Positions 23,385 to 58,584 of a stretch of DNA of 64,000 nucleotides are shown here, piece by piece. Location of the stretch: NCBI RefSeq assembly GCF_013122565.1, contig NZ_CP053258.1. One strand, written 5' to 3'. Position numbers and translations under genes: made by a program. The stretch is from Escherichia coli (lineage in GTDB: Bacteria; Pseudomonadota; Gammaproteobacteria; Enterobacterales; Enterobacteriaceae). Under the pieces are notes generated by a model. The model made no database searches. It was not told where the DNA came from and worked only from the letters and a program-made list of their open reading frames with translations. Position 1 is the first letter of the stretch. The number at the start of each line of letters is the position of its first letter.

Positions 23385-23411
23385 GTGGGTTTTTTGTTGC
23401 CTGAAATTTAT
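23385..23411. repeat. attL core direct repeat gtgggttttttgttgcctgaaatttat
   Basis: 26/27 identical to copy at 58558..58584. Confidence 0.75.
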
Positions 23412-36127: not shown

Positions 36128-36702
36128 ACCGGGCCTCCGGTTGTATCGCCGCCTTTCAGGACGCCAGTATGCTGATGCGCATCAACCACGATCCCGTTAG
36201 AACTCATCGCTCCGCCGCCCTGGGTAACGCCACCATTGATCACAACTTCGCTGTTAATGCGCGTGCGGTCAGCCTCCAGTACAAACTCACTGGTTTTCAG
36301 GGTGATATTGTCAGCGGCCTCAATGACCATGGATTTGATGCCCCTGACATACCAGCGCCCGGTGGCGGGTTCGTATTCAAACCAGCCACCGTCTGGGTAC
36401 TCAACCACGTTGCCGTCCTCAGAGTCTGAAGGTGGTGGAAACTGATTTGAGTAGACAGCAGGCAGGGCAAACGCGGTTTCCAGATTGCCACCCAGGCTGA
36501 ACAGCACAACCTGCTCGCCCACAGACGGTTTCCACCAGGTGCGCGATTTGCCCGCGCGCAGTGTCAGCCAGTTAATCCAGTTGGTTTCGAGGTCGCCCGT
36601 TTTCACCCGACACAGCCAGTTTTCCCGGTCCACTTCGGTGACTACACCTGTGCGAATCAGATTGGTGATAAGGCGCATGATTTCGGTTAGTTGTGCATTC
36701 AT
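36124..36702 (-). CDS. V: baseplate spike protein V
   Basis: 192-aa ORF at P2 V position. Confidence 0.8.
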   Translation of the reverse strand: MNAQLTEIMRLITNLIRTGVVTEVDRENWLCRVKTGDLETNWINWLTLRAGKSRTWWKPSVGEQVVLFSLGGNLETAFALPAVYSNQFPPPSDSEDGNVVEYPDGGWFEYEPATGRWYVRGIKSMVIEAADNITLKTSEFVLEADRTRINSEVVINGGVTQGGGAMSSNGIVVDAHQHTGVLKGGDTTGGPV

Positions 36703-36750
36703 GTCGACGATATTTGCACAAACATATATTGTGGGACATTGAGTCAGAAA

Positions 36751-36768
36751 TGTATGACTTACTACACA
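36751..36768 (-). promoter_or_regulatory. Ogr-type late promoter dyad TGT-N12-ACA upstream of V operon
   Basis: tgtatgacttactacaca about 50 bp upstream of V start. Confidence 0.5.
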
Positions 36769-36795
36769 ATGTTTATCCGCGCAAAGGAGTTACAG

Positions 36796-37701
36796 ATGAC
36801 ACAAATCGGTATCTATGGATATTGCTTCACGAAAGAATTTACTTTTAAAGGAGGGACACTGATACCTCGTTACAAATCCTTTAAGGAACTAAAAGAGAAT
36901 AAATGCGATGGAAGCGAATATGTATTAAGTGGATTTTTCTCTCCCGCACATGCTTCTGAAAACACCGTCACTCAAATAATTTATGATCTTTCAGCTGTTT
37001 TAAGTTTCATTGAACAAAAAAATGTAATCATATCAAACTTCCTAGAGGAACATGAAACACCTGAAAAGTTAGATAATAATTTCCCACTAAAATTGAAGTC
37101 AAAAAGAAAGTCATCACTAGGAATAATTGTTGAAGATTACTTCTCTGAAAAGAGTCGCTCAGCGTTCATTGAGCTTGCGATGGATAAACTTCATAGAAAT
37201 ATTAATTCTCATCAAAACCCTTTTAGAACTGCGTTCTATAAGTCTATATTTTCTTTTAGGGAAAGAATGGACTATGTAGATGTTAAATACTTCCTTAATT
37301 TCTCAGCATTAGAATCCCTGTGCAGATATATCGATAACGAGTCGACATCTAGTTATACACCACAAATAATTACAAAGGTTTTAAAAGATTATGGTTTTAA
37401 TGTATCTAAAGAAGGCAACCCTGTACCACAAAGAAACGTGATTCACTATTGCACGCTTCGAAACTCTCTATTCCACAATGGAAATTATATTGGATACATT
37501 AAGAAAGATGATCCAAGCAGTATCATTAAATTAAGTGATTATTATTCAAATCTAAATTTACTTTTACCTTTAGTATTAATGAAATATATAGGATTCGATG
37601 ATGGATTAATTAACTGGGACTCATGGATAGACTATGAACCATTTCTCGCCCTCAGGCCTAAAAACTTAACTCCATCGAATGGTAAACAATCAATTAGATA
37701 G
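36796..37701 (+). CDS. hypothetical moron protein with Rx4H (HEPN-like) motif
   Basis: 301-aa ORF (MTQIGIYGYCF...), RBS aggag upstream, about 33% GC, opposite strand to flanking tail genes; ..CTLRNSLFHNG.. motif. Confidence 0.6.
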   Translation: MTQIGIYGYCFTKEFTFKGGTLIPRYKSFKELKENKCDGSEYVLSGFFSPAHASENTVTQIIYDLSAVLSFIEQKNVIISNFLEEHETPEKLDNNFPLKLKSKRKSSLGIIVEDYFSEKSRSAFIELAMDKLHRNINSHQNPFRTAFYKSIFSFRERMDYVDVKYFLNFSALESLCRYIDNESTSSYTPQIITKVLKDYGFNVSKEGNPVPQRNVIHYCTLRNSLFHNGNYIGYIKKDDPSSIIKLSDYYSNLNLLLPLVLMKYIGFDDGLINWDSWIDYEPFLALRPKNLTPSNGKQSIR

Positions 37702-38136
37702 CCAGCGCAATAATACATCGTGGGTTAAGGATTCTACGTCATCATTAATACCTAACAAACGACGCTCTGCGTAACGGACCTCCGGTCCTTTGCGACTAAC
37801 GCGATCACGCAGGCCGTAATGGTGAACACGGGCAATACGCTGCACCTTGCCTTCAAACTGTACGCTGGCAGAGTCGGCGCTGGCGGCAGTTTTCAGGTAT
37901 TTTGTGGTGCGCAGCTTTGCAAACATCTGACGTTTGATGCGCCCCTTCTTGCTACGTGCTGTTACCCTGCGCGGTTCATAACTGCTGCCATCTGGATTGC
38001 GCTGCATCCTGATATTCTGCTGCTGTGTCCGGCGCAGTTCCTGCGCCAGCTGGCGCATCATGCGGCTTCTCGTGGCTGGTTCCAGATTCGCCAGCAAGGC
38101 ACTCAGCCAGTCGTCCACCTTCTGCAGTTCAGCCAC
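37690..38136 (-). CDS. S: tail completion protein S
   Basis: 148-aa ORF at P2 S position. Confidence 0.8.
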   Translation of the reverse strand: MAELQKVDDWLSALLANLEPATRSRMMRQLAQELRRTQQQNIRMQRNPDGSSYEPRRVTARSKKGRIKRQMFAKLRTTKYLKTAASADSASVQFEGKVQRIARVHHYGLRDRVSRKGPEVRYAERRLLGINDDVESLTHDVLLRWLSN

Positions 38137-40558: not shown

Positions 40559-41209
40559 TCAGCGGCTGTCATTGCGCAGTCTGCGCTCCAGCTGCTGTTT
40601 GTCTTTTTTCACGCCACAGCGGGGATCGAGCTGTAACGCATGGTTGAGATGATTAAGGGCGGAAGCCGGATTGCTTTCACTCAGGACAGCGCCAATCGCT
40701 TTATGCAGACGCGCCCGTGACTGGTCCGGCATATCCAGACCGTCTGTCAGCTCCAGCGTCTGCAGCAACAGATCGGCATCAAAGCCGGTGGCGGCAAGCA
40801 TTGCGCTCTGCGCGGCGTCTGCCATTTCCTCTGCCAGCACGGTCTGCACGTTGCGGTTACCCAGCGGCATCACCCAGCCATGACGCAGGGCATGACGCCC
40901 GATCTCCAGCGCCCCGGCATAATCTCCGGCATCAATACGCCACAGCATCACGTACATCAGCACGTCATCCTGTTGAGCGCCTCCGGCAGCCAGGACACCC
41001 TCTGCCCAGGCGGCGTACTTCGGCAGCAGCTCCACCTTGATTTCCGCTTTTTTGACCGTGGACTGAACGCCCTTGAGACGGCGGCGGTCTTCCGCCAGTT
41101 GCAGCAGCATCAGGTCATAGCCCGATGCGTGGCGAACACTGCCGCCCTCGCGGGCGGCCTGTTCAGCCTGAACGCGCAGGCGATGCTGCCGTGCGGGACT
41201 CAGGCTCAT
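40559..41209 (-). CDS. M: terminase small (endonuclease) subunit M
   Basis: 216-aa ORF at P2 M position. Confidence 0.8.
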   Translation of the reverse strand: MSLSPARQHRLRVQAEQAAREGGSVRHASGYDLMLLQLAEDRRRLKGVQSTVKKAEIKVELLPKYAAWAEGVLAAGGAQQDDVLMYVMLWRIDAGDYAGALEIGRHALRHGWVMPLGNRNVQTVLAEEMADAAQSAMLAATGFDADLLLQTLELTDGLDMPDQSRARLHKAIGAVLSESNPASALNHLNHALQLDPRCGVKKDKQQLERRLRNDSR

Positions 41210-43263: not shown

Positions 43264-45030
43264 ATGAACACCACACTGACACCCGCAGATCTCGATCCCC
43301 GTCGGCAGGCCATGCTGCTGTACTTTCAGGGATACCGCGTAGCCCGCATTGCTGAAATGCTGGGCGAGAAAGTTGCAACCGTTCACAGCTGGAAAAAACG
43401 CGACAAGTGGGGTGACTATGGGCCGCTGGATCAGATGCAGCTCACCACCGCCGCACGCTACTGCCAGCTCATCATGAAGGAGCACAAAGAAGGGAAAGAT
43501 TTCAAAGAGATTGACCTGCTGGCGCGCCAGTCTGAGCGCCACGCGCGGATCGGCAAGTTTAACAATGGCGGCAACGAATCCGACTTAAACCCTAACGTCG
43601 CCAACCGCAACAAAGGCCCACGCCGTCAGCCGGAAAAGAATGTTTTCACCGATGAGCAGATTGAGAAGCTGGAAGAAATCTTCCATTCCTCCATGTTCAA
43701 CTACCAGCGCCACTGGTGGGAAGCCGGAAAAACCAACCGCATCCGCAACCTGCTGAAGTCACGCCAGATCGGCGCGACCTTTTACTTTGCCCGTGAAGCC
43801 CTGATTGACGCCCTGCTGACCGGACGTAACCAGATTTTCCTTTCCGCCAGCAAGGCACAGGCCCACGTCTTTAAGCAGTACATCATCGACTTCGCCAAAG
43901 AAGTGGAGGTGGAGTTGAAAGGCGATCCGATGGTGCTTCCTAACGGGGCCACGCTTTACTTCCTCGGCACCAATGCCCGCACGGCCCAGAGTTATCACGG
44001 CAACCTGTATCTGGATGAATATTTCTGGATACCGAAATTCCAGGAGCTGCGCAAAGTGGCTTCCGGTATGGCTATTCACAAGAAATGGCGACAAACCTAT
44101 TTTTCCACGCCATCCAGCCTGACACACAGTGCTTATCCGTTCTGGTCCGGTGCGCTATTCAACCGTGGGCGCAACAAAGCCGATAAGGTGGACATCGACC
44201 TGTCCCACAGCAATCTGGCCCCCGGCCTGCTGTGCGCAGACGGGCAATACCGCCAGATTGTCACCGTGGAAGATGCAGTGCGCGGCGGATGTAACCTGTT
44301 CGACCTCGATCAGTTACGCATGGAGTACAGCCCGGACGAATACCAGAACCTGCTGATGTGCGAGTTTGTGGACGATCTCGCGTCTGTGTTCCCACTCAGC
44401 GAGCTGCAGGCGTGCATGGTGGACAGCTGGGAAGTCTGGACCGACTTTCATGCACTGGCACTGCGCCCATTTGGCTGGCGCGAAGTGTGGATCGGTTATG
44501 ACCCGGCGAAAGGTACGCAGAACGGCGACAGTGCCGGATGCGTGGTGGTGGCACCGCCAGCCGTGCCGGGCGGCAAGTTCCGCATTCTTGAGCGTTACCA
44601 GTGGCGCGGGATGGACTTTCGCGCCCAGGCTGACGCCATCAAAAAACTGACCGAACAGTACAACGTGACCTATATCGGCATCGACTCAACCGGCGTTGGT
44701 CACGGGGTTTATGAGAACGTGAAAGCGTTCTTTCCTGCCGTCCGGGAGTTTGTCTACAACCCCAACGTTAAAAACGCCCTGGTACTCAAGGCCTACGACA
44801 TTATCAGCCACCGCCGTCTGGAGTTTGACGCCGGGCACACCGACATTGCGCAGTCATTCATGGCAATCCGTCGCGCCACCACCGCCAGTGGCAACCGCCC
44901 GACCTATGAAGCCAGCCGCAGCGAAGAAGCCAGCCACGCCGATCTGGCCTGGGCAACGATGCACGCACTGTTTAACGAACCGCTGCAGGGCGAATCCGCC
45001 AATACCAGCAATATTGTGGAGATTTTTTGA
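43264..45030 (+). CDS. P: terminase large (ATPase) subunit P
   Basis: 588-aa ORF at P2 P position. Confidence 0.85.
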   Translation: MNTTLTPADLDPRRQAMLLYFQGYRVARIAEMLGEKVATVHSWKKRDKWGDYGPLDQMQLTTAARYCQLIMKEHKEGKDFKEIDLLARQSERHARIGKFNNGGNESDLNPNVANRNKGPRRQPEKNVFTDEQIEKLEEIFHSSMFNYQRHWWEAGKTNRIRNLLKSRQIGATFYFAREALIDALLTGRNQIFLSASKAQAHVFKQYIIDFAKEVEVELKGDPMVLPNGATLYFLGTNARTAQSYHGNLYLDEYFWIPKFQELRKVASGMAIHKKWRQTYFSTPSSLTHSAYPFWSGALFNRGRNKADKVDIDLSHSNLAPGLLCADGQYRQIVTVEDAVRGGCNLFDLDQLRMEYSPDEYQNLLMCEFVDDLASVFPLSELQACMVDSWEVWTDFHALALRPFGWREVWIGYDPAKGTQNGDSAGCVVVAPPAVPGGKFRILERYQWRGMDFRAQADAIKKLTEQYNVTYIGIDSTGVGHGVYENVKAFFPAVREFVYNPNVKNALVLKAYDIISHRRLEFDAGHTDIAQSFMAIRRATTASGNRPTYEASRSEEASHADLAWATMHALFNEPLQGESANTSNIVEIF

Positions 45031-46064
45031 TGGGAAAGAGTAAGAAGAACCGAGCTGCGGCGACGAAACAGATCCAGCTTAAAAGTCAAACTACAGCCGA
45101 AGCATTCAGCTTCGGCGATCCCGTTCCTGTTCTGGACCGCCGAGAATTACTGGACTATGTGGAATGCGTACAGATGGACCGTTGGTATGAGCCGCCCGTC
45201 AGCTTTGACGGACTGGCGCGCACCTTCCGCGCTGCAGTGCATCACAGTTCCCCGATTGCAGTAAAGTGCAACATTCTGACCAGTACCTACATCCCTCACC
45301 CGCTGCTCAGCCAGCAGGCTTTTTCACGTTTTGTGCAGGACTATCTGGTATTTGGTAACGCCTACCTGGAGAAACGCACGAACCGATTCGGTGAAGTTAT
45401 CGCCCTTGAGCCTGTGCTGGCAAAATACACCCGACGCGGGTTAGACCTGGATACCTACTGGTTTGTGCAATACGGCATGACTACACAGCCGTATCAGTTC
45501 ACGAAAGGCAGCATTTTTCACCTGATGGAACCGGATATCAACCAAGAGATCTACGGCCTGCCCGGTTATCTTTCTGCCATTCCGTCAGCCCTGCTCAACG
45601 AGTCCGCCACGCTGTTCCGCCGCAAGTATTACATTAACGGCAGCCACGCAGGCTTCATCATGTACATGACCGACGCCGCGCAGAACCAGGAGGATGTAAA
45701 CAACCTCCGTAACGCGATGAAAAGCGCCAAAGGACCAGGCAACTTCCGTAACCTGTTTATGTACTCGCCGAACGGCAAAAAGGACGGGCTTCAGATCATC
45801 CCATTGTCTGAAGTCGCGGCAAAGGATGAGTTTCTGAATATCAAAAATGTTAGTCGCGATGACATGATGGCGGCACACCGCGTGCCGCCGCAAATGATGG
45901 GGATTATGCCTAATAATGTTGGGGGGTTTGGGGATGTGGAGAAAGCGAGTATGGTATTTGTGAGGAATGAATTAATTCCTCTACAAAGGCGTTTAGAAGA
46001 GCTTAATTTGTGGCTAGAAGAGGAAGCCATAAAATTCAAACCATACAATTTATCAGATAATTAG
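45027..46064 (+). CDS. Q: portal protein Q
   Basis: 345-aa ORF overlapping P stop, P2 Q position. Confidence 0.85.
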   Translation: MMGKSKKNRAAATKQIQLKSQTTAEAFSFGDPVPVLDRRELLDYVECVQMDRWYEPPVSFDGLARTFRAAVHHSSPIAVKCNILTSTYIPHPLLSQQAFSRFVQDYLVFGNAYLEKRTNRFGEVIALEPVLAKYTRRGLDLDTYWFVQYGMTTQPYQFTKGSIFHLMEPDINQEIYGLPGYLSAIPSALLNESATLFRRKYYINGSHAGFIMYMTDAAQNQEDVNNLRNAMKSAKGPGNFRNLFMYSPNGKKDGLQIIPLSEVAAKDEFLNIKNVSRDDMMAAHRVPPQMMGIMPNNVGGFGDVEKASMVFVRNELIPLQRRLEELNLWLEEEAIKFKPYNLSDN

Positions 46065-46071
46065 AATCATG

Positions 46072-46108
46072 GCCCTAGTATATTATCATTTTCACTAGGG
46101 CTTTCTTT
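46072..46108. terminator. hairpin plus T-rich tract between convergent Q and retron RT
   Basis: gccctagt..actagggc stem followed by tttctttct. Confidence 0.5.
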
Positions 46109-47869
46109 CTATATGCTGCATATTTTTTTATAATGTTCAAAAACATCTTTAAAAGTGTTGAGTATTATTTCAAAACCACTAAAATCAACTTTTCGTTTTT
46201 TATCCCTAACTACTTTCACAGAGAAAACATGTTTCCCATATTCAGTTTTTGAGTCCCCATCGTTCTTTTTGTTAAATTTTTTACCACCAAGAATAGTTGA
46301 TAATACATCATGAGTAAAAAGATCTTCCATCGCAGTCTGCTCACCAGTAGCACTTAAAGGCGTTAGAATGATATAGAGATTTTTAAAGACATGGATAAAT
46401 CTCATTTTTCTCATTTTATTGGTATCATCGGGGCAGCTCTTAACATTATTTTTAAGGAAATTCAAAATCTCATTAGAACCAGAATCGTTGTCCAATACCA
46501 TGATAACCGGGTGCTTAGGAATGCTTCCATAGTAGCTTGAATATTCATCCATATATCTTTCGATGAATTTTTTAAGATCTGCGCTACCTCCAGACATATT
46601 AATAAAATAACTTGACTTCTCATCAGATTTAAAAATATTCAAGTTGATATCATTTCCTTTACCGTCTGTGCTTTTCTTGAGCAACTCAGGAAATTTGGCA
46701 GAAAGTGAACGAATAGCTGATTTTAAATATACTCGATCAGTTTTGCCTTCTGTCAAGATTGTCGGGGAAGCATGTCCATGAAAAAACTTGTAGTAAATAA
46801 ATTTACTATATGCCTTCTCTCGTACATTCAGCTTTAACCTGTAGTTTTTTAATGTAATATGAATAGGCGCATATTTTTCAGGCTGTTTACTTATTTTATC
46901 TTGTATGTTATTAAATTTATCAATCTGGTCAATAAACCCAAATCTTCCCTCTAGTTTTTCGATACTCCCCACGACTAGCTTACCATCTTCATCAGGTAGC
47001 TTATATTCTCCCTTACTATAAAGTGAATGAGCTAATGCTCTTGTTTTATTCGAATATTTCCTATCAACGTTAACAAATCTATTTATAGTAAGTCCCGTAA
47101 CTTCTTGTCTCGTGGATTTGTACGAGATCCTTGTTTTAGCATCATTAATATCAAAACCAGCACGTTTTATTTCACTGACAAGAATGCTCCCCAAGACAAC
47201 CCCCTCAGGAAGAGATATTGCCAAATCGGTAGGAAATTCTTTTTTATTAGTTGAAAACGTGATGTCATCGGCATAACGACTATATGAACAACCTAAACTC
47301 TTTGCTAATTTAGCTAATCTAATATCCATAATGCTACAAATTAAGTTTGTTATCACTGGAGAACACGGGCTACCCTGAGGCAAACTTCCCTTATAGCATG
47401 CGGCTTTAGCTAAAGTAGTGGCGACAATCGGATTTAATAAGAAATCCCTATTGGATAGGAAGTACCCTCTCACTCGCCCAAAATTAAAGCTTTTGAAAAA
47501 ATCCTTAAGATCAATATTGAGTATTATATTTTTCCCACGATGTCTGAAAGCATTGGAAATTATTGACTTATTTCTTTCAAAACCAAAGGAGTAATTGTTT
47601 TTAATTTTTTTAATTTTGAAAGTTTCATCTCTACACTCCATTAAAAGATCGGCTATTCGTCTTTGGAGATCTTTCAAACTATCTTCTGGCGCAGAAATCA
47701 ATCTGACTCCCTTACCTTTTTTTGGAATAGAGAAATCTTTATACTGATTATCAGTACCAATTCTGTAAAGAATATTCGTTAAAAACACCAACTTAACATC
47801 TAGCAATTTTGCCAAGTCAGCACGAGATGCTGCGACTTTCAAAAGTAGTAATTTAGAAGTTGCGACCAT
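46109..47869 (-). CDS. ret: retron-type reverse transcriptase with C-terminal Toprim-like domain (Ec67/Retron-Eco2-like)
   Basis: 586-aa ORF; RT motifs [12 protein letters not shown] and YADD; C-terminal ..ILTEGKTD.. and ..VLDNDSG.. resemble Toprim E and DxD motifs; about 33% GC. Confidence 0.8.
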
Positions 47870-47908
47870 AATTATATTTTATCGTAGAAGTTAGTAAGAG
47901 AGGAAGAA

Positions 47909-48037
47909 CGCATGTAGGCACTCCTTCGCACAGCACAACGGCCCTATAGCGACGAAACAAGGATGTCAGGGATGCGATTCCACCTGCCATTAAAATCACT
48001 GGTTGTGATACACAACCAACAAATCTGCCTACATGCG
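47909..48037 (-). ncRNA. msr-msd: putative retron msr-msd non-coding RNA
   Basis: 12-bp perfect inverted repeats cgcatgtaggca (47909..47920) and tgcctacatgcg (48026..48037) flank a 105-nt region 40 nt upstream of RT start; G follows a1; internal hairpin ggttgtg-ata-cacaacc. Confidence 0.5.
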
Positions 48038-48105
48038 CATAAATGAAACTACCATTTCAACGTCTTCATTTCCAGTAATATATTTCAAATATCTACACTG
48101 AGCGC

Positions 48106-48124
48106 GCGCTCGTATCCCCGCCAC
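48106..48124 (-). other. putative cos (cohesive-end) site
   Basis: Minus strand GGCGTGGCGGGGATACGAG; first 13 nt match the P2/186 cos 5' motif GGCG(A/T)GGCGGGGA as I remember it. Confidence 0.4.
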
Positions 48125-48158
48125 GCCTGCCCGCTTTATGTAGTGGTTTTCATGCAGG

Positions 48159-48228
48159 TGCATGATCTACGCAAAAGCCCGCCAGTTCTGGCGGGCCTTA
48201 GCAAAAACGATCCTCAAACGATCATGCA
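48159..48228. other. compound palindromic structure (9-bp outer IR enclosing a 9-bp GC hairpin)
   Basis: tgcatgatc...gcccgccag tt ctggcgggc...gatcatgca seen directly; function unknown. Confidence 0.4.
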
Positions 48229-48469
48229 ATCTCATGCAGCATAGACATGCACAGACGAGTAAAGCGAATCGGACCTTACGCAAGGTGAACTCCTCAGCGG
48301 GCATAATCAGTATGTCGGAAGATCTCTAAAAATAAATAATTCGGTTAACAGGTATGCTTACAAAAGCATATATTTGATTAAAAATCATGTAAGGGGGAGG
48401 ATCTCAAACTGAATCGCCACGGGTTTTACAAATTTCGATAGTCTCTCTAACGTTTCGGCTGAGGTCAAA

Positions 48470-48895
48470 ATGAAAAGCTTTTACGTATTAATTTTAATTC
48501 TGGTTGCAAGCTTTGTTAGCGTCCCAGTTCAGGCGGTAACAGCTAAAAACTATGAGAAAGGAACTAAAGCTCAACAGAAATCAATATCTTACCTTTCATG
48601 TGCATTCTATGGCAGTAGCACACAATTAGATCCTAGCTACACGGAGCAAGTACCTACAGCCGATATCAAGATATTACAGAAAGCAGCTTACCACGCTTAC
48701 AACGATGCGCTCTCATACTTTGGCTATGAGGAACCAGATCACGAACAACGCATAATTGATTATGCTGAATTTGTGGCGTCGCAAGAAGCTGTGTTATGGG
48801 ATAAGCCGGGAATGAATGGAAAGCAGGTAACACTAATTGCTCGTTCTCTCTACAATGAGAGTAACTGTAACTTGTTACTGGACTCAATTAAGTAG
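48470..48895 (+). CDS. hypothetical secreted protein (signal peptide)
   Basis: 141-aa ORF MKSFYVLILILVASFVSVPVQA...; AT-rich; opposite strand to neighbours. Confidence 0.6.
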   Translation: MKSFYVLILILVASFVSVPVQAVTAKNYEKGTKAQQKSISYLSCAFYGSSTQLDPSYTEQVPTADIKILQKAAYHAYNDALSYFGYEEPDHEQRIIDYAEFVASQEAVLWDKPGMNGKQVTLIARSLYNESNCNLLLDSIK

Positions 48896-49054
48896 GAAAA
48901 AGATGGTATTTTGCCCGTAGTTTCAACCTTAATCTCCGAACCTGTCGCAGAACGGGCGTTCACTCATCAAATAAACGCCACACCTAACGCCTCACTGTAC
49001 TCGTTGTTCAACCTTGCTGACGCCAGAACCAAGTTCAGACGCCAGCAACTTTTC

Positions 49055-49288
49055 TTAATGCAGCCAGCTGTCGTCTTCCCACACCTTCTGCATAATCTTC
49101 ATCACTTGTTTTCTTTCTTCGTCCAGTTGCAGTCCGGTCAGTTCCACACCGTTAGAGCTACCTTTGCGGATGCGAATTACCGTTTTGGGATACAGGGGGC
49201 GCAGATTGCGGTAAAGCTCGGATTCAAGGGCGTCCAGGGTAGACTGGCTAATCTTCTGCTCTTTATCGATCATTATTTCAATGCGCAT
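49055..49288 (-). CDS. DinI-like protein (Tum/antirepressor C-terminal-domain-like)
   Basis: 77-aa ORF MRIEIMIDKEQKISQSTLDALESEL...WEDDSWL resembling the DinI family; GAGGTGA RBS upstream. Confidence 0.7.
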   Translation of the reverse strand: MRIEIMIDKEQKISQSTLDALESELYRNLRPLYPKTVIRIRKGSSNGVELTGLQLDEERKQVMKIMQKVWEDDSWLH

Positions 49289-49298
49289 AAAGGTCACC

Positions 49299-49487
49299 TC
49301 AGCTGATGACATCCATTGAGCGGTTGTATTCGTGGGTTCTGATTTTTGCCATGAGTTCATCAGTCAATTCAGAAACCCACTGCAGAGCCAGCCCCTTCTC
49401 TTCATCACTACACTCACTAGCCGCTACAAGCTTAAGAAAAAAATCAATGCGCTGGAGCTTCAAAGACTCCAAAAAATAGTCCTGCAT
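49299..49487 (-). CDS. hypothetical small protein (first gene of LexA-box-associated operon)
   Basis: 62-aa ORF just upstream of the DinI-like gene. Confidence 0.5.
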   Translation of the reverse strand: MQDYFLESLKLQRIDFFLKLVAASECSDEEKGLALQWVSELTDELMAKIRTHEYNRSMDVIS

Positions 49488-49529
49488 CTTTCCTCCTATG
49501 ACACCAAAGCAATACTGTATATATAACCA

Positions 49530-49545
49530 CTGTTTATATTTACAG
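49530..49545. promoter_or_regulatory. LexA box (CTGT-N8-ACAG)
   Basis: ctgtttatatttacag 43 bp upstream of the 62-aa ORF start; adjacent half-site tactgtatatat. Confidence 0.7.
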
Positions 49546-49639
49546 TATATAATAATCTTACTGATGTAAAACGTTTTTTTACGTTCATCAGCCTGAAATG
49601 CCTGGTATTATTAAGAGCACGAATTGTTAACCCGCGTAA

Positions 49640-52054
49640 TTAATACAGGTTCCGCCACTTATCATCTTCCTGCAAACGCTGGTTCCGATAGAAGATACGC
49701 AGGCCTGCTCCTGACGGAATACTGCCGCCGCGAAGGAGTAAATCGACCTCTTTCTCGCTGCCATCAAATCCTCTGGACTTCAGTTCATAGACGAGCTGCT
49801 GTCGCTGATGGTCTGTAATTCGCTGTTTGTAGTCTTTACGCCGTTTCGGTTTCACCAGGCGTAACCTTGCAGCCAGTTCCCGGCGCTCTTTTTTGCTCAT
49901 ACTGTGCAGGTATTCGTGCAACTCCTTGTCATCCATGCGGGTAATGTCCGTTCTGGTATCCCCATCAGCTGATTTGTCTTTCCCTTGTTGGTTCAAATTT
50001 TCAGCAAGGGGACAGTTATTGCCACGAGTCCAAGGGGCGCAAGCGCCCTGGTCGGCTACCGCCTCCTGAACGTCAACGGCTTTACGAACCATTTTCCACT
50101 TCACTGCATGAGTGCAGATCTTGCCCTCTGCAATGGGTGACCAGATGCCATAAATACGAATGCCGTGATCGCCATAGGCGGTCGGCTCTTCGTTAATTTC
50201 ATAAGCAGTTCTGATGAGGTGATATTTGCGGGGAACCAGTACGCCGCCCTGCTTCATGATGTAAGTGGCAAAACAACCAGCATCAGCAGCAGCCAGGATT
50301 GCATCAAGGCGCGGGTTATCCAGTACCGGCGCACCTGCTTTTTTGTCCCCCTGTTGCCTTGCCGCCTGACCAGCCAACAATCGCAGTTCACGGTAAGCCT
50401 GACGCCCCGGAATGCCAAAGAAGCGGAATTGCTGAACACGATGCAAAGACGCCCAGGCATTCACGTATTCAGCGTTATCACGCAGAGATTTACCCGTTTC
50501 CTTGCTGATCTCGCCAGCCAGACCACGCCCGTCAATGTTCTTACTGATGTATTTCGCGATGTAGCTTGTTGGCGTACCTTTGCGCGGGTTTATCAGCTCA
50601 GACTTAAAGCGTGGTCCCGTGTTATTACCCAGCTCCTCGCGGTCTTCACGAATGGCAAACTTACGCAACAAAGCAGTAATGGCTCGGCGATCTTTTTTGC
50701 GCATAAAACACAACAGGTGCCAGTGCACTGTACCGTCATGATGCGGCTCAGCCACCCGCACGCCATACCAGCGCAATCCGGCTTTGTGCATCGCTTTACG
50801 AAATGCAGCAAACATGCCGACCAGATAATCACTGCTTTGTCTTACCGTCGCGTTTGTCCAGGTCGGGTTTGGTCTGCCGTTATTTAGCGTGGAATGGAAA
50901 CGTGACGGACAGGTGATGGTGTAGAAAACGGCGCAGTCACCGCGCATTTCCGCGATAAGCTCCAGACCTTTAACACAGGCCATCATCTCATTGCGGCGAT
51001 GCGCAGGGTTGCTGCTGCTGGCGTTTACCACGTCTTCCATATCCAGCGTGTCGCCGTCTTCGTTCACCAGTTCATGAGAACGAAAAAACTCCAGCGACTT
51101 ACGGCGCTGCTCACGTTTATGCATCACGGCTTCATAGCTGACATAGGGAGATGCTTTTTTGCTGACCAGGCAGACAGCGCGCAACTGCTCTTCCCGCCAT
51201 TCGCAACGCATCTTCCATAATTTCCGATACCACCAGTCGGCGCACAACATACGCGCCAGCGAACCCGGAATGAGTTCATAGGGCACGGGTTTACGGCGGT
51301 TTCTTTTCCGGCGGAGTTGCTCAAACGCAGGTGGGATGACATCCAGTCGCAGGGTTTCTGCTGCCACCCTTTCCCATGTCTTGCGGATTTCTTCTGGCTT
51401 AACGTCATCGGTGGCATACAAATCGCCACAAGCTGCATCAAGGCACATGCTCATATGCGCAGCTACCAGGGTGGACAGGCGTTTCACCTGATCCTGACTC
51501 ATTTCAGGCAGGATCAGCAGGCCGTCCAGCCCTTCCTGGCTCGCCATAAAGCGAAAAGCAGTGGATAGCTGACTGTCGCGTACATGCTCCAGCCGTTCCA
51601 GACATGGCTTAATCGTCTCACGCAAATAGCGGGAATAAGCCTTTGGCCTGCCCAGGCTGCTGAAGTATTCAATACGTTGCATCAGCGGCTTGCTGATATG
51701 GGAAGGCTGGGCGTTAACGTCCGCCAGAATGACCATGTCTGGATTAAAACGCTGCTGCTCATGCGCCAGCTTTGCCCGGCTAATGAGCTTATCCTGCTCT
51801 ATTTCGCGTTGGACAGGATCACGGGATTCATTAAAGAAATAACGCTCCCAGACCTGATCACTCAGAGCCTCGCGGCGCAGTTGTTCCTGCTCGTTATCGG
51901 CAGCGTACAGAGTGATCAGGTTTGAAAGCGCAGAAACCGGCGCAACTTCCGCCGGGTCCAGATAAGGGTTAATGGCCTTTTTCGGGCTGTTCCATGAGAA
52001 TGCTGCGGCGACCTCGTTAAAGCCGCTGCAGTTGTTCATATCATCATGGCTCAT
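49640..52054 (-). CDS. A: replication initiation protein A (rolling-circle nickase)
   Basis: 804-aa ORF at P2/186 gene A position. Confidence 0.85.
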
Positions 52055-52908
52055 GCACGCACTCCGTACATGGCAGAACTATCCACGCCACGCGAAGGAT
52101 CAAATCCCACCCAGCAGCGCGCCCCGGAAACAGCAATGATTTCTGTTGCAGATTTACTCTCGCCAGCCGACACGCCGATGCTGCGTTTTGCCTTGATGTA
52201 GTGGTGAGTGAAATTGCGATACAGCGAACGAATCAGGGATGTGTCACTGTTAGAAACAATGACCGGATGTCCTTCAGATGCTCGATGTTCAAGAACGGAT
52301 GCCAGGTGATACTGGTCATCTTCAGTGAAACCATCAGTGTGATAGCCGGAAAACGTACCGTCATACGGCGGATCGCAATACACCACATCCCCCGCCTTCA
52401 ACATCGCCAGCGTTTCATCAAAGCTGGCGCAGATAAACGTTGCCCGCTGGGCTTTTTCTGCAAATGCGCGAATTTCTTTTTCAGGGAAATACGGATTTTT
52501 ATAATTACCGTAGGGAATGTTGAAATGCCCGCTCTTGTTATAGCGACATAAACCACGGTAACCGTGACGATTGAGATACAGGAAATATACCGCTTTCATG
52601 AAATCAGTAATTTCAGTGGAGTAATTAAACTCCTGCCTTATGTTGTAATAAGCCACCTCCCTGTTTGCGATCTCAAATAAAACTCTGGCGCGAGATATAA
52701 ACGATTCACAATCAGCGGCAACCTTTTTATAGAGGTTGATTAAATCAAGATTAATATCCGCAACCAGATAGCTTGGATAATCCGTCTCCATCATCACAGC
52801 ACAGGAACCCGCGAAAGGTTCAACCAGTCGCGGGCCAGCAGGAAGGTGTTTTTTCAGTTCGGACATAATTGCGGTTTTATTTCCCGCCCATTTCAGGATG
52901 GTGCTCAT
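52051..52908 (-). CDS. DNA adenine methyltransferase (Dam-like, phage-encoded)
   Basis: [11 protein letters not shown]..., DPPY catalytic motif, [16 protein letters not shown]; resembles E. coli Dam. Confidence 0.85.
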
Positions 52909-53132
52909 ACAGCACCTCCGTTGTAATGTTTGCCTTTCAGCTCTGCGATTTCCTGACAGGTAATGCAAAGCTGCACTCCCGGAATGGCGCGGCGTCGTGC
53001 TGGCGGAATTGGCGCTTCACATTCAATGCAAAGTACGCGTGACACGCCCGGTGATTTGGCACGGGCTGCACGGATATGGCGCTGGCGTTCTTCTTCAACG
53101 CGCTGCTGTACGAGATCCATTGCATCAGCCAT
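52905..53132 (-). CDS. TraR/DksA-family C4 zinc-finger protein
   Basis: 75-aa ORF with CIECEAPI...CITCQ. Confidence 0.7.
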   Translation of the reverse strand: MADAMDLVQQRVEEERQRHIRAARAKSPGVSRVLCIECEAPIPPARRRAIPGVQLCITCQEIAELKGKHYNGGAV

Positions 53133-55054: not shown

Positions 55055-55651
55055 ATGTCAACATCAAAGTACCCAAGTGAGATCAAAATAAATCCCAATA
55101 AAGGTGGTAAGGCTGCGATTGAGCGATTAGTCGAAGCCTATGGCTTTACGACACGACAGGCTTTAGCTGATCACTTGGAAGTATCAAAAAGCACACTAGC
55201 GAACAGGTATTTGCGGGATACATTTCCTGCTGACTGGATAATCCAATGTGCTCTTGAAACAGGAACCTCCCTCAAATGGTTAACTACCGGACAAGGCCTT
55301 AAGCAAAGCTCGCTGACAGCAGCTACAGAAGAGCTTGTTAAGTTTCGCCTTGCCGCAGGCAAAATGATTGAAGACGGTTCATATGTCTTCGATTCATCAT
55401 TTCTTCCTGCAAACCTTTCATCACCAATTGTTATTCAGGATGGACTCGTCACATACATTTGTGATCAAAAATTTTCTGAAGTACTTGATGGAAACTGGTT
55501 AATCAATATCGACGGAACCTATTCCATTCGAAAAATCACAAGGCTTCCTAAAGGAATGATTAAAATTACAACAGCAGAGAATAGCTTTGAATGTGCATTT
55601 TCTGATATTGAAGTGGTTGCTTGTATAAGAAGTACAATAGTCTCGAATTAA
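55055..55651 (+). CDS. cI: CI-type immunity repressor (186-like)
   Basis: 198-aa ORF, HTH N-terminal region; divergent from lytic operon. Confidence 0.75.
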   Translation: MSTSKYPSEIKINPNKGGKAAIERLVEAYGFTTRQALADHLEVSKSTLANRYLRDTFPADWIIQCALETGTSLKWLTTGQGLKQSSLTAATEELVKFRLAAGKMIEDGSYVFDSSFLPANLSSPIVIQDGLVTYICDQKFSEVLDGNWLINIDGTYSIRKITRLPKGMIKITTAENSFECAFSDIEVVACIRSTIVSN

Positions 55652-55671: not shown

Positions 55672-57348
55672 ATGAATTCATTTGCCATCGTTATACTCTT
55701 ATTAGCATTTCTCGCCCCTGTTCTAGCTGTAATATTATTTAAACAAAGTAAAAAACACAAAGCGGCTATAGATAACCTGACAGCTAACAACATAGCCCTT
55801 TCTAACCAACTGATTGAAAATCAAGAAAAACTAGCACAGACCGTACGAGAATTATCAGATCTTGAAGGGCGAGCAGCACCATTGTGGCAATACGAAGAAT
55901 TGCACAGCGCAGTAATGGATGCAGAGAATAAGATAAAAAATGCGGACTCAATAGCCAAGCAAAAAATAGATGAAGCCCAAATTAAGGCGGCTAAAACAGT
56001 AAACGAAGCAAATTATCAAGCTCAGATAACAATAAGCAACGCTAATAGCGAAGCTATAGCAATCACCAAAGACGCTCGCGATGCACGCCTGAAAGCCAAA
56101 GAACGTCTTGATAATGCTAATAATAAAGCAAATGAGCTAATCTCAAATGCTAATGACAATGCAGTAAAAATTATTTCTGATGCAGAAGAAAGAGCAAAGG
56201 AGATTGCTGGTTCAGCATATGAAGCTAAAGAGTTTGCAGAAAAATATGAAGCAGTTGCAAAATCAATGAAAAATAAAATTGAAGGTTATGGTGATGAATG
56301 GATCATCCCTAACCGTAGTGTACTTGATGAGCTGGCAGAAAATTATGAATTTACAGATGCAGGCAAGGAATTACAAAAAGCCAGAGAGTTAACCAAATCA
56401 TTAATAAAAACTAATAAAGCTGCTTCGTGTGATTATGTTGAGCAAAACAGGCGTAATACTGCCATAAACTTTGTTTTGGATGCCTTCAATGGAAGAGTTG
56501 ACAGTATTTTATCAAAAGTCAAACACAACAATTTTGGAAAACTTTCCCAAGAAATAAAAGATGCATTTCAACTAGTAAATTACAATGGCTCTGCCTTTAG
56601 GTCCGCAAAAATAAGTGACATCTATCTTCAGGCAAGACTCAACGAGCTAAAATGGGGTGTAGCAGTTAATGAAATTATGCTCGAAGAAAAAGAAGAGCAA
56701 AGAAGGATTAAAGAACAGCTTCGTGAAGAGGAAAGAGCTCGTAGAGAATATGAAAAAGCGATAAAAGAAGCTGAAAAAGAAGAAAAAGCTATTCAGCAAG
56801 CTATAAATAAAGCAACGAAAGAACTTATGCTTGCAAATGAAGAACAACGCTTAGCTTTAGAGCAAAAAATAGCTGAACTACAGTTAAAATATGAAGAAGC
56901 TGAAGCTAAAAATCAACGAGCTATTTCTATGGCTCAACAAACCAGATCAGGCCACGTCTATATCATTAGTAATATTGGTTCATTTGGCGAAGATGTATAT
57001 AAAATTGGAATGACACGCCGCCTTGAACCACTTGATCGTGTTCGTGAACTCGGAGATGCTAGTGTTCCTTTTTCGTTCGATGTTCATGCGATGATTTATA
57101 GTGATGATGCACCATCATTAGAAAACCATCTGCATAAAGTTTTCAACGAAAAGCAGGTCAATAAAATTAACTCACGAAAAGAGTTTTTTAACGTAAATTT
57201 AAAAGAAATCAAATCAGTTATTGAAGACATGAACATCAACGCCCACTGGACAATGTTTGCAGAGGCGAAAGAATATAGAGAGTCTCTAGCTATTGAGCAG
57301 GAGCGCAAAGCAGCCACTTCCGCCAACGATGAACTACATGTTGCTTAG
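55672..57348 (+). CDS. membrane-anchored coiled-coil protein with C-terminal T5orf172/GIY-YIG-like domain
   Basis: 558-aa ORF; N-terminal TM; long coiled-coil repeats; C-terminal GHVYIISN...YKIGMTRR...RVRELG; about 37% GC; between cI and int. Confidence 0.65.
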   Translation: MNSFAIVILLLAFLAPVLAVILFKQSKKHKAAIDNLTANNIALSNQLIENQEKLAQTVRELSDLEGRAAPLWQYEELHSAVMDAENKIKNADSIAKQKIDEAQIKAAKTVNEANYQAQITISNANSEAIAITKDARDARLKAKERLDNANNKANELISNANDNAVKIISDAEERAKEIAGSAYEAKEFAEKYEAVAKSMKNKIEGYGDEWIIPNRSVLDELAENYEFTDAGKELQKARELTKSLIKTNKAASCDYVEQNRRNTAINFVLDAFNGRVDSILSKVKHNNFGKLSQEIKDAFQLVNYNGSAFRSAKISDIYLQARLNELKWGVAVNEIMLEEKEEQRRIKEQLREEERARREYEKAIKEAEKEEKAIQQAINKATKELMLANEEQRLALEQKIAELQLKYEEAEAKNQRAISMAQQTRSGHVYIISNIGSFGEDVYKIGMTRRLEPLDRVRELGDASVPFSFDVHAMIYSDDAPSLENHLHKVFNEKQVNKINSRKEFFNVNLKEIKSVIEDMNINAHWTMFAEAKEYRESLAIEQERKAATSANDELHVA

Positions 57349-57430: not shown

Positions 57431-58486
57431 ATGGCAGTACGAAAACTAACCACAGGGAAATGGCTTTGCGAATGTTACCCCGCCGGACGTAGCGGACGCC
57501 GTGTGCGTAAACAATTCGCCACCAAAGGCGAAGCACTGGCCTTCGAGCGATACACCATGGGGGAAATAGAAGCAAAGCCCTGGCTGGGCGAATCAGTGGA
57601 TCGTCGGACACTGAAAGATATGGTTGAGCTATGGTTCAAATTACATGGCAAATCTCTTACTGCCGGACAGCATGTCTACAACAAGCTGCTGTTGATGGTT
57701 GACGCCTTGGGAAATCCCCTTGCAACTGATCTCACCTCAAAAATGTTTGCTCACTATCGCGATAAACGCCTTACTGGTGAAATCTACTTCAGTGAAAAAT
57801 GGAAGAAAGGAGCAAGCCCAGTTACTGTTAACCTGGAGCAAAGCCATCTAAGCAGCGTTTTCAGAGAACTTTCCCGCCTGGGTGAATGGACACTTCCAAA
57901 CCCATTAGAGAAGATGCGCAAATTCACTATCGCAGAAAAGGAAATGGCATGGCTTACACATGAGCAGATTATCGAATTACTGTCTGACTGCAAACGTCAG
58001 AACCCAATTCTGGCACTGGTGGTAAAAATATGTCTAAGTACAGGCGCACGTTGGCGAGAAGCAATCAATCTTACCCGCTCACAGGTCACCAAGTACCGAA
58101 TCACCTTTGTGAGAACGAAGGGGAAGAAAAACAGAAGCATCCCTATCAGTAAAGAGCTTTATGAAGAGATCATGGCGCTCGATGGGTTCAATTTCTTCAC
58201 AGACTGCTATTTTCAATTTTTATCCGTGATGGAAAAAACGTCTATCGTTCTCCCTCGCGGTCAACTGACACACGTTCTGCGCCATACGTTTGCGGCGCAC
58301 TTCATGATGTCGGGTGGAAACATCTTGGCCTTACAAAAAATTCTCGGACACCACGATATAAAAATGACTATGCGTTATGCGCATCTGGCACCGGATCATT
58401 TGGAAACGGCGCTCCGTTTCAATCCACTGGCAACGTTACCAAATGGCGACAAAGTGGCGGCAGCGGTTGGCATTACCCCGCAATAA
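57431..58486 (+). CDS. int: tyrosine integrase (P2/186 family)
   Basis: 351-aa ORF with R..HxxR..Y catalytic pattern (TGARWREA...LRHTFAAHF...MRYAH). Confidence 0.85.
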   Translation: MAVRKLTTGKWLCECYPAGRSGRRVRKQFATKGEALAFERYTMGEIEAKPWLGESVDRRTLKDMVELWFKLHGKSLTAGQHVYNKLLLMVDALGNPLATDLTSKMFAHYRDKRLTGEIYFSEKWKKGASPVTVNLEQSHLSSVFRELSRLGEWTLPNPLEKMRKFTIAEKEMAWLTHEQIIELLSDCKRQNPILALVVKICLSTGARWREAINLTRSQVTKYRITFVRTKGKKNRSIPISKELYEEIMALDGFNFFTDCYFQFLSVMEKTSIVLPRGQLTHVLRHTFAAHFMMSGGNILALQKILGHHDIKMTMRYAHLAPDHLETALRFNPLATLPNGDKVAAAVGITPQ

Positions 58487-58557: not shown

Positions 58558-58584
58558 GTGGGTTTTTTGTTGCCTAAAATTTAT
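58558..58584. repeat. attR core direct repeat gtgggttttttgttgcctaaaatttat
   Basis: 26/27 identical to attL copy; 3 bp from rcdA stop. Confidence 0.75.

Follow-up and report, generated by a model that had tools for sequence, protein, structure and literature searches.

Where does a P2-like prophage of Escherichia coli cut its DNA for packaging when a retron lies close by, and does the retron travel inside the virion? The question is raised by a gap of about 600 bp next to the retron, in a window of 64,000 nucleotides (the whole stretch of DNA analysed, from contig NZ_CP053258.1 of assembly GCF_013122565.1). A sequence-only reading of the window had proposed that the gap is non-coding, that its minus strand holds a motif resembling the 19-nt cohesive end of phages P2 and 186, and that a compound palindrome nearby might be a terminase-binding element, a terminator or a small RNA. 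We argue here, from homology, the register of short repeated boxes, covariation and gene context, that positions 48102-48252 are the cos of a P2-family (Peduoviridae, Fels-2/186-like) prophage, with boxes in the right arm that are probably accessory sites and an inner hairpin that is probably a terminator. We put the probability of this reading at about 85%.

A P2-like prophage with a retron

The window holds a 35.2-kb prophage, apparently intact, in the E. coli chromosome. It is bounded by 27-bp direct repeats, taken as the att sites, at 23385-23411 and 58558-58584, a repeat match with the partners 35,173 bp apart. The second repeat adjoins an integrase gene (57431-58486), and the flank beyond it is E. 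coli core chromosome, the mdfA-ybjG region. The spacing of the repeats falls within the genome sizes of the family, 33.6-39 kb. Over 27.2-54.7 kb the window can be aligned collinearly with an annotated P2-like prophage in E. coli E308 (91-98% identity), in a block that takes in tail, lysis and head genes, the terminase endonuclease subunit, capsid, scaffold, terminase ATPase and portal. The packaging, head, tail and lysis genes of the prophage are all collinear with those of E308, and all are open.

The packaging genes can be placed individually. The homolog of P2 M, the terminase endonuclease or small subunit gene, lies on the minus strand at 40559-41209, collinear with the E308 gene annotated 'terminase endonuclease subunit'. 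The homolog of P2 P, the ATPase or large subunit gene, lies on the plus strand at 43264-45030 and is collinear, at 96.5%, with the E308 'terminase ATPase subunit family protein'. The portal gene, homolog of P2 Q, follows on the same strand at 45027-46064 (TIGR01540, 364 bits, in agreement with the RefSeq annotation of the homologous locus). Just past the Q stop codon, at 46071-46109 on the plus strand, a terminator-like hairpin can be read from the sequence, GGCCCTAGT...ACTAGGGC followed by TTTCTTTC; it corresponds in position to tQ of P2 and tW of 186.

Around the site the genes are arranged as in the P2 family. The capsid gene N and the scaffold gene O, on the minus strand, are followed by terminase P and portal Q on the plus strand (43264-46064), the T-run hairpin, the retron reverse transcriptase (RT) gene on the minus strand, msr-msd, and cos. 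Beyond cos come a 141-aa ORF on the plus strand and then, on the minus strand, a DinI-like gene, a 62-aa ORF and the replication endonuclease gene. The DinI-like gene (49055-49288), which resembles tum of 186, is the last gene of an operon transcribed toward cos. The 141-aa ORF (48470-48895) has a signal-peptide-like N-terminus, appears as right-arm cargo and is transcribed away from cos; profile searches gave no family match for it, and a promoter-like site for it lies at 48345-48374.

The cos core and its cohesive end

Is the 19-nt motif truly a P2-family cohesive end? The sequence GGCGTGGCGGGGATACGAG is the reverse complement of 48109-48127 and is read on the minus strand from 48127 to 48109; the motif had been seen correctly, with its start placed at 48106, 3 nt off. 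The likeness to P2 and 186 is borne out by comparison with annotated ends: the window agrees with 186 cos, GGCGTGGCGGGGAAAGCAT, at 15 of 19 positions, and with P2 cosL, GGCGAGGCGGGGAAAGCAC, at 14 of 19. The first 13 nt, GGCGTGGCGGGGA, have a single exact occurrence in the window, where about 0.18 matches would be expected by chance even with one mismatch allowed. When up to 3 mismatches were allowed, the 186 19-mer gave no match in the window, because the site has 4 mismatches to 186, all in the 3' third (the last six positions). The full 19-mer is identical, at 19 of 19 positions, to the cos published for SEN8, an infectious phage of Salmonella (PMC5427200), where it is annotated as 'putative' and also forms the start of the SEN8 record, and the Fels-2 locus carries exactly the same 19-mer.

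A pattern scan of IMG/VR with AAAACC-N17-GGCGNGGCGGGG returned 120 loci. The 112 usable matches, together with P2, 186, P4 and the window itself, gave 116 cos sequences for comparison, among which the 19-mer of the window is the commonest variant (38 of 116, the window counted among the 38).

The similarity extends well past the cohesive end. When the record ends of P2, 186 and P4 are joined, the layout of a 55-bp core is obtained, in which the 19 nt are flanked by 29 bp of the right arm and by 7 bp of the left arm (CGCGCGC). This core aligns without gaps to the minus strand of the window at 48102-48156, with identities of 42/55 to P2, 44/55 to 186 and 43/55 to P4, which is the outcome that the cos proposal had called for. 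A 55-bp core conserved among P2-family cos regions was described by Ziermann and Calendar (1990, Gene 96:9), as cited in PMC5694545 and PMC9594776. The near-invariant columns of the core are common to the window and 62 other loci. When all 600 bp of the gap were compared by BLAST with 50,697 phage records, similarity was confined to 48094-48252, at 92-97% identity in 92 records, which come from P2-like phages of Klebsiella, Escherichia, Salmonella and Yersinia. In keeping with a non-coding gap, near-identical RefSeq E. coli loci annotate no CDS there.

The predicted nicks, placed from the annotations of 186, PSP3 and EtG, fall at 48128/48127 on the minus strand and 48109/48108 on the plus strand, and would leave 5' overhangs of 19 nt. 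The records of SEN8 and of Erwinia phage EtG terminate exactly with the base that precedes the 19-mer, at the predicted nick. How would the site be used? After excision and replication, terminase, made up of gpP (43264-45030) and gpM (40559-41209), would recognise the core at 48102-48156 and nick it in staggered fashion at both ends of GGCGTGGCGGGGATACGAG, generating the 19-nt 5' cohesive ends.

The retron between portal and cos

The retron occupies 46109-48037. Its RT gene, on the minus strand at 46109-47869, encodes a 586-aa protein of the Ec67 family in which the RT is fused to a Toprim nuclease domain; NCBIfam NF038237 (retron_Ec67_fus) matches with 685.9 bits (cutoff 450), and PADLOC calls the RT as RT-Toprim_I-C with 706 bits. 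The msr/msd segment, on the same strand at 47909-48037, is framed by 12-bp a1/a2 inverted repeats at 47909-47920 and 48026-48037, complementary at 12 of 12 positions. The msr is collinear with that of an E. coli locus annotated as 'retron Ec67 family', and an Rfam scan of 45500-50000 at E <= 1 returned no match for the retron msr. The retron promoter must lie in 48038-48101, adjoining the left arm of cos.

With the P2-family order of N, O, P, Q, cargo, cos, DinI-like gene and replication endonuclease, the retron sits between Q and cos. The sequence-only reading had proposed that it lies there, within the packaged genome, and this is supported by the P2-family gene order inside the 35.2-kb att-bounded prophage. 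The slot itself has sharp edges. In four loci, namely the window, E308 (which carries a P-loop NTPase gene), FHI_NMBU_11 (an Ec67-family retron) and SEN8, variable cargo begins 7-8 bp past the 19-mer, at the edge of the 55-bp core; in the window the distance is 8 bp. The right end of the slot is at the core, and the left boundary is the T-run hairpin at 46071-46109. In other E. coli genomes the same slot holds P-loop NTPase, HIRAN, DUF262 or RES genes. The distance from cos to portal in the IMG/VR set is about 176 bp in most P2-type loci and 0.8-3.3 kb in most Fels-2-type loci. The cos-adjacent locus between gpA and gpQ is a hotspot of variable anti-phage systems, retrons included (Rousset et al. 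2022, PMC9122126).

The DNA to the left of the core, up to the terminator of the portal gene, is on this evidence the interchangeable cargo slot of the family. From the topology of the site and from precedent, we infer that the Ec67-family retron would be packaged at the extreme left end of the virion DNA, as its first ~2 kb.

Might the cos instead be an unused relic in a defective prophage, with a retron that is never packaged? Many P2-like prophages in E. coli are cryptic, and the combination of retron and exact cos-Q cassette was found at high identity in none of 5,426 complete E. coli genomes. The state of the site and of the prophage speaks for function, however. The core agrees with the Fels-2-type consensus at all strongly conserved positions, and its 19-mer is that of an infectious phage, SEN8; the prophage keeps open, collinear genes for packaging, head, tail and lysis, as well as its integrase gene and the att repeat at either end, and its genome length fits the capsid. 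A relic seems to us improbable, and a working cos remains the preferred interpretation.

Repeated boxes in the right arm

What, then, is the palindrome beside the core? Both of its inverted repeats are real. A repeat finder returns an outer pair, TGCATGATC at 48159-48167 and GATCATGCA at 48220-48228, complementary at 9 of 9 positions, and an inner pair, GCCCGCCAG at 48177-48185 and CTGGCGGGC at 48188-48196. The picture of a 9-bp hairpin nested in a 9-bp repeat did not survive closer measurement: the inner arms are just 2 nt apart, so that the stem that can form has 8 bp and a loop of 4 nt, and the centres of the outer and inner repeats are at 48193.5 and 48186.5. Nor did the distance of forty base pairs from the cohesive end, which is 31 bp from the 19-mer to the outer repeat and 49 bp to the hairpin. 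A single nested palindrome or cruciform is ruled out by the 7 bp between the centres and by the fact that the outer 9-bp match is not family-wide. The outer repeat owes its full 9 bp to a GATC at -40 (positions are counted from the nick), which is present in 3 of 46 Fels-2-type representatives, and TGCA at -101 is present in 8 of the 46; what the Fels-2 type keeps of the outer repeat is just the 7-bp TGCATGA/TCATGCA.

One would think little of such a repeat alone, as by our estimate about 0.2 repeats of 9 bp are expected per 600 bp. The repeats are meaningful because they are conserved, through the match over 48094-48252 and through a register that is kept across the family. The left arm of the outer repeat is a TGCA(T) box at -35 with its flanking bases, and the right arm is a box at -101 plus GATC. 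These are two of five boxes on the minus strand. The proximal boxes, in 48153-48162, are at -29 (48153-48156) and -35 (48159-48162); the distal boxes, in 48225-48251, are at -101 (48225-48228), -111 (48235-48238) and -124 (48248-48251). Among 92 dereplicated right arms, TGCA stands at -124, -111, -101, -35 and -29 in 62, 59, 36, 82 and 93%, respectively, over a background of 2.8% per position. In a MAFFT alignment of 63 sequences of less than 90% identity, GCAT is at least 90% conserved at three boxes, those at -111 and -101 included.

The register of the boxes is common to P2, 186, P4 and Fels-2-type arms. Reading outward-in, the right arms of P2, 186, P4, Fels-2 and the window all have three distal boxes, a central segment, two proximal boxes, AAAACC and the nick. 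The spacing between distal and proximal boxes is 66 bp and is invariant, and the right-hand edge of the conservation seen by BLAST, 48252, is at the -124 box. Four of the five boxes lie outside the 55-bp core in the form in which Ziermann and Calendar (1990) is cited in PMC5694545 and PMC9594776.

By analogy with cosB of phage λ, the TGCA boxes most probably serve terminase as accessory sites, for recognition or for architecture, and are the best candidate contacts for its small subunit. The outer arms, as two of the five boxes held at fixed distances, would share in that accessory role, and for these outer boxes the earlier suggestion of a terminase-binding element is plausible.

We also considered packaging regulated by Dam methylation, as conserved GATC sites occur at -96 and -85. 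These sites follow the lineage, as does a phage dam gene, and inside the lineage the two are not linked (among Fels-2-type loci, 17 have GATC sites and dam, 7 have GATC without dam, and 3 have dam without GATC), and this candidate was rejected.

The inner hairpin

The inner repeat forms a GC hairpin on the minus strand at 48173-48196, that is, at -69 to -50 from the nick. Its stem pairs 48189-48196 with 48177-48184 around a GAAC loop, and TTTT follows at 48176-48173. The minus-strand RNA folds at -27.6 kcal/mol (z = -5.1), with an 8-bp GC stem that reaches 11 pairs when extended; the T-run is short, TTTT and then GCG. The pairing is a family trait. A hairpin of at least 5 bp is present at -69 to -50 in 38 of 46 Fels-2-type representatives, 30 of them with at least 4 T toward cos, and the loops vary freely (GAAC, GTAC, GTAT, GTTC, GGAA and others). 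Of the aligned cells that belong to the 8-pair structure, 73.4% are paired, as against 62.3 ± 1.2% when shuffled, and none of 500 shuffles came as high. The covariation score is 0.287, compared with 0.07-0.14 for slid controls, and double changes occur in all 8 pairs, figures to be read with the caveat that the sequences are related and that the structure was taken from one among them.

Is this a terminator? In Fels-2-type phages the T-run faces cos, and for that reason the hairpin looks like an intrinsic terminator. The flanking genes fit this. The Fels-2 operon A-orf-dinI-STM2726 runs toward cos and ends 105 bp short of the hairpin, and in cargo-free loci the DinI-like stop codon is 137 bp upstream of it; with a cos-facing T-run and operons heading toward cos, the element reads as a terminator that shields cos. 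The Fels-2 and cargo-free loci thus have a co-oriented unit upstream, while in the window the divergent 141-aa ORF separates the DinI-like gene from the hairpin. Since this nearest right-arm gene (48470-48895) points away, the hairpin of the window is without an immediately adjacent upstream gene. Among the roles suggested earlier for the palindrome, terminator suits the inner hairpin, predicted as a GC stem-loop followed by UUUU on the minus strand, and probably the hairpin is the intrinsic terminator of the early/DinI operon. The stem and TTTT would stop transcripts of the replication/DinI operon that otherwise would cross cos into the retron, antisense to Q-P.

A consensus terminator scan did not list the hairpin at 48177-48196, probably because greedy stem extension, with G-T pairs allowed, uses up the T-run. 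The same scan flagged a weak 5-bp plus-strand hairpin at 48131-48146, inside the core, and its pairing is not conserved in Fels-2-type sequences.

Another possibility is that the hairpin is chiefly a component of cos at the DNA level, such as a dyad site for terminase or a host protein, a cruciform or a spacer, and that its terminator look is secondary. The element holds its position at exactly -69 to -50 in Fels-2-type, P4 and 186-type arms although the surroundings have diverged, and the spacing of distal and proximal boxes on either side of it does not vary. In its core, CGCCAG..CTGGCG, not just the pairing but also the sequence is conserved. In the P4-type arms the same coordinates are taken by another stem, CCGCGCC/GGCGCGG, and the 186-type arms have a 5-bp remnant, CGCCA/TGGCG, at the hairpin position; both are without a T-run, and 186 has its own terminator, t95b, further upstream. 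The right arm of P2, however, has no hairpin at -69 to -50, and yet P2 terminase packages both P2 and P4 (PMC9122126), so the hairpin must be dispensable for recognition. The freely varying loop and the covarying outer pairs are typical of a folded single strand, and a T-run facing cos in 30 of the 38 Fels-2-type hairpins is likewise at odds with a purely DNA-level element. We therefore hold a mainly DNA-level role to be rather unlikely and keep to the terminator as the likelier reading. With no hairpin in P2, and no T-run in 186 and P4, termination is not a universal reason for a paired element at this place.

Could the palindrome encode a small regulatory RNA, or be part of a 55-aa ORF at 48162-48329? 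Stable folds are found on both strands, and a weak minus-strand promoter-like site at 48519-48491 could drive an RNA of about 320 nt that ends at the hairpin. That site matches at 9 of 12 positions, about 300 nt upstream and inside the 141-aa ORF, in a scan whose site count was no higher than in shuffles. Conservation among phages stops at 48252, so that such a transcript would be mostly non-conserved, and the Rfam scan of 45500-50000 gave no family match even at E <= 1; the small RNA suggested earlier thus finds no support. RefSeq has no CDS here, and conservation tracks the boxes and the paired columns rather than codons. To the RNA and ORF explanations together we give almost no weight next to that of a terminator. 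As a gene, the 55-aa ORF was rejected, being unannotated in the RefSeq homologues and conserved in a box-like, not a codon-like, manner.

Implications for P2-family packaging

The main value of the present analysis is in annotation, as it fixes the packaging site and the predicted virion ends of the prophage. Nothing of the 600-bp gap is left over, since it divides into msr/msd and the promoter that drives the retron, the core of cos, its accessory right arm and a promoter for a cargo gene. As for the retron, it belongs to the usual cargo of a known cos-portal hotspot and so would be carried along with the phage.

Longer cos flanks improved the transduction of P2/P4 cosmids (PMC9594776), which is a hint in favour of terminase contacts at the boxes; a conserved right arm that reaches about 125 bp beyond the nick fits that result, and bears on P2/P4 cosmids and transducing particles. 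How large, then, is the functional cos of the P2 family and P4? A tentative proposal, which we consider rather less than even odds, is that it is larger than 55 bp, with the five boxes and the hairpin making up a cosB-like terminase-assembly module of about 125 bp, and the hairpin acting also as an insulator terminator in the Fels-2 type. If so, the 66 bp that separate distal from proximal boxes would reflect a constraint of the architecture, one that could be put to the test.

Comparison with known systems

The basic cos structure of P2, P4 and 186 is preserved in the window. All have a 19-nt 5' cohesive end that starts GGCG(A/T)GGCGGGG, a right-arm flank of AAAACC...AAGCGGGC(A/G) and a left arm with GCGCGC, and in all of them cos is placed between the portal gene and the right-end genes. 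The differences lie in the last 6 positions of the 19-mer (ATACGAG here, AAAGCAC/T there) and in the right arm of the window, which has a stronger hairpin, with a T-run. Among the closest known sites are those of the Felsduovirus phages Fels-2 and SEN8, whose right arms are 94% and 90% identical to that of the window, respectively, over about 140 bp that include the hairpin and boxes. Both also hold cargo genes between cos and the portal gene, though other ones, namely a 565-aa ORF in Fels-2 and, in SEN8, genes for a hypothetical protein and an HNH endonuclease, and the host is Salmonella rather than E. coli.

Two further comparisons concern the right arm. In its logic the site resembles λ cos, with cosN and a cosB that has R sites and an IHF site, in that a nick site is flanked on one side by short repeated boxes at fixed spacing, which could serve to order the binding of the terminase small subunit. 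There is no sequence similarity between the two, the λ overhang is 12 nt as against 19 nt here, and a contact between the boxes and terminase is proposed here by analogy. The predicted terminator has a counterpart in t95b of 186, at the end of the p95 tum-orf97 operon, which likewise terminates an SOS/DinI-type operon that runs toward cos from the right arm. The positions differ: t95b is at about -188 to -161, upstream of the TGCA boxes, whereas the hairpin of the window, at -69 to -50, is between the distal and proximal boxes.

The retron arrangement also has clear precedents. Ec67 and Ec86 are in the same arrangement in 186-related prophages (Dodd and Egan 1996, Virology 219:115, as cited in PMC6868368, PMC5694545 and PMC7826664), and the element that carries Ec67 measures 34 kb, has direct repeats of 26 bp and includes a dam gene (Hsu et al. 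1990, as cited in PMC7826664). There, as here, a retron replaces the DNA between cos and the terminator past the portal-side packaging gene, and the window shares with these elements an RT-Toprim protein of the Ec67 family, a prophage of about 34-35 kb, direct repeats of about 26 bp and an encoded Dam methylase. It differs in that its retron is just ~78% identical, at the DNA level, to the Ec67-family loci of complete E. coli genomes. Set beside the hotspot of Rousset et al. (PMC9122126), the window is one more arrangement, with no material difference, and what it shows is known biology, a textbook cos of the P2 family beside cargo of a known type.

Cargo at the cos-portal junction

Across the IMG/VR loci L009-L128, found by pattern scan for P2-family cos, the spacing between cos and the portal gene has a bimodal distribution. 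Most P2-type loci have a spacing of about 176 bp and no cargo, and most Fels-2-type loci carry cargo in a spacing of 0.8-3.3 kb. Here the slot holds an Ec67-family retron (46109-48037) that was found at high identity in 0 of 5,426 complete E. coli genomes, where its DNA identity to Ec67-family loci is only about 78%. How far does the exchanged DNA extend? Similarity to the collinear P2-like prophage of E. coli strain E308 ends at 45987, 77 bp short of the portal stop (differing segment 45988-46064). Because similarity is lost before the stop, the swapped cassette seems, from this alignment, to take in the portal gene's AT-rich 3' end together with the portal terminator.

On the other side of cos, the right arm has GATC (Dam) sites at 48209-48212 and 48220-48223, that is, at -85 and -96 from the predicted terminase nick, and a further one at 48164-48167. 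The fixed-position pair is kept in 38 of the 46 Fels-2-type representatives among dereplicated right arms; GATC at these positions is rare among the P2, 186 and P4 types. A gene for a Dam-like methylase (52051-52968) is likewise present in the prophage, and inside the lineage no association was found between the GATC sites and a phage dam gene. Further along, at the right-arm cargo position, lies a 141-aa ORF (48470-48895, plus strand) that is convergent with a DinI-like gene, and is preceded by a promoter-like site (48345-48374) with 10/12 consensus matches. Its N-terminus, MKSFYVLILILVASFVSVPVQA, resembles a signal peptide; the ORF was assigned to no family, and certain E. coli prophages keep it at 99.9%.

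Other cargo and prophage boundaries

A segment of about 1 kb (36703-37732), flanked by the baseplate V gene and the virion-morphogenesis genes, is absent from the E308 prophage and may be an additional cargo slot. Its 336-aa ORF (36691-37701, plus strand) lies on the opposite strand, and gave zero matches in NCBIfam and PADLOC. P2 orf30 occupies the equivalent place. Between the integrase (57431-58486) and a CI-like repressor ORF (55055-55651) is a 558-aa ORF (55672-57348, plus strand) which, judged by its PADLOC match to PD-Lambda-1 (400 bits), is a second anti-phage cargo gene of the prophage; the E308 prophage instead has a GapS1 gene close to its integrase. The whole is bounded by 27-nt direct repeats (23385-23411 and 58558-58584, 26/27 identical) spaced 35,173 bp apart, in agreement with what is described for the original Ec67 element, an insert 34 kb long and flanked by 26-bp direct repeats.
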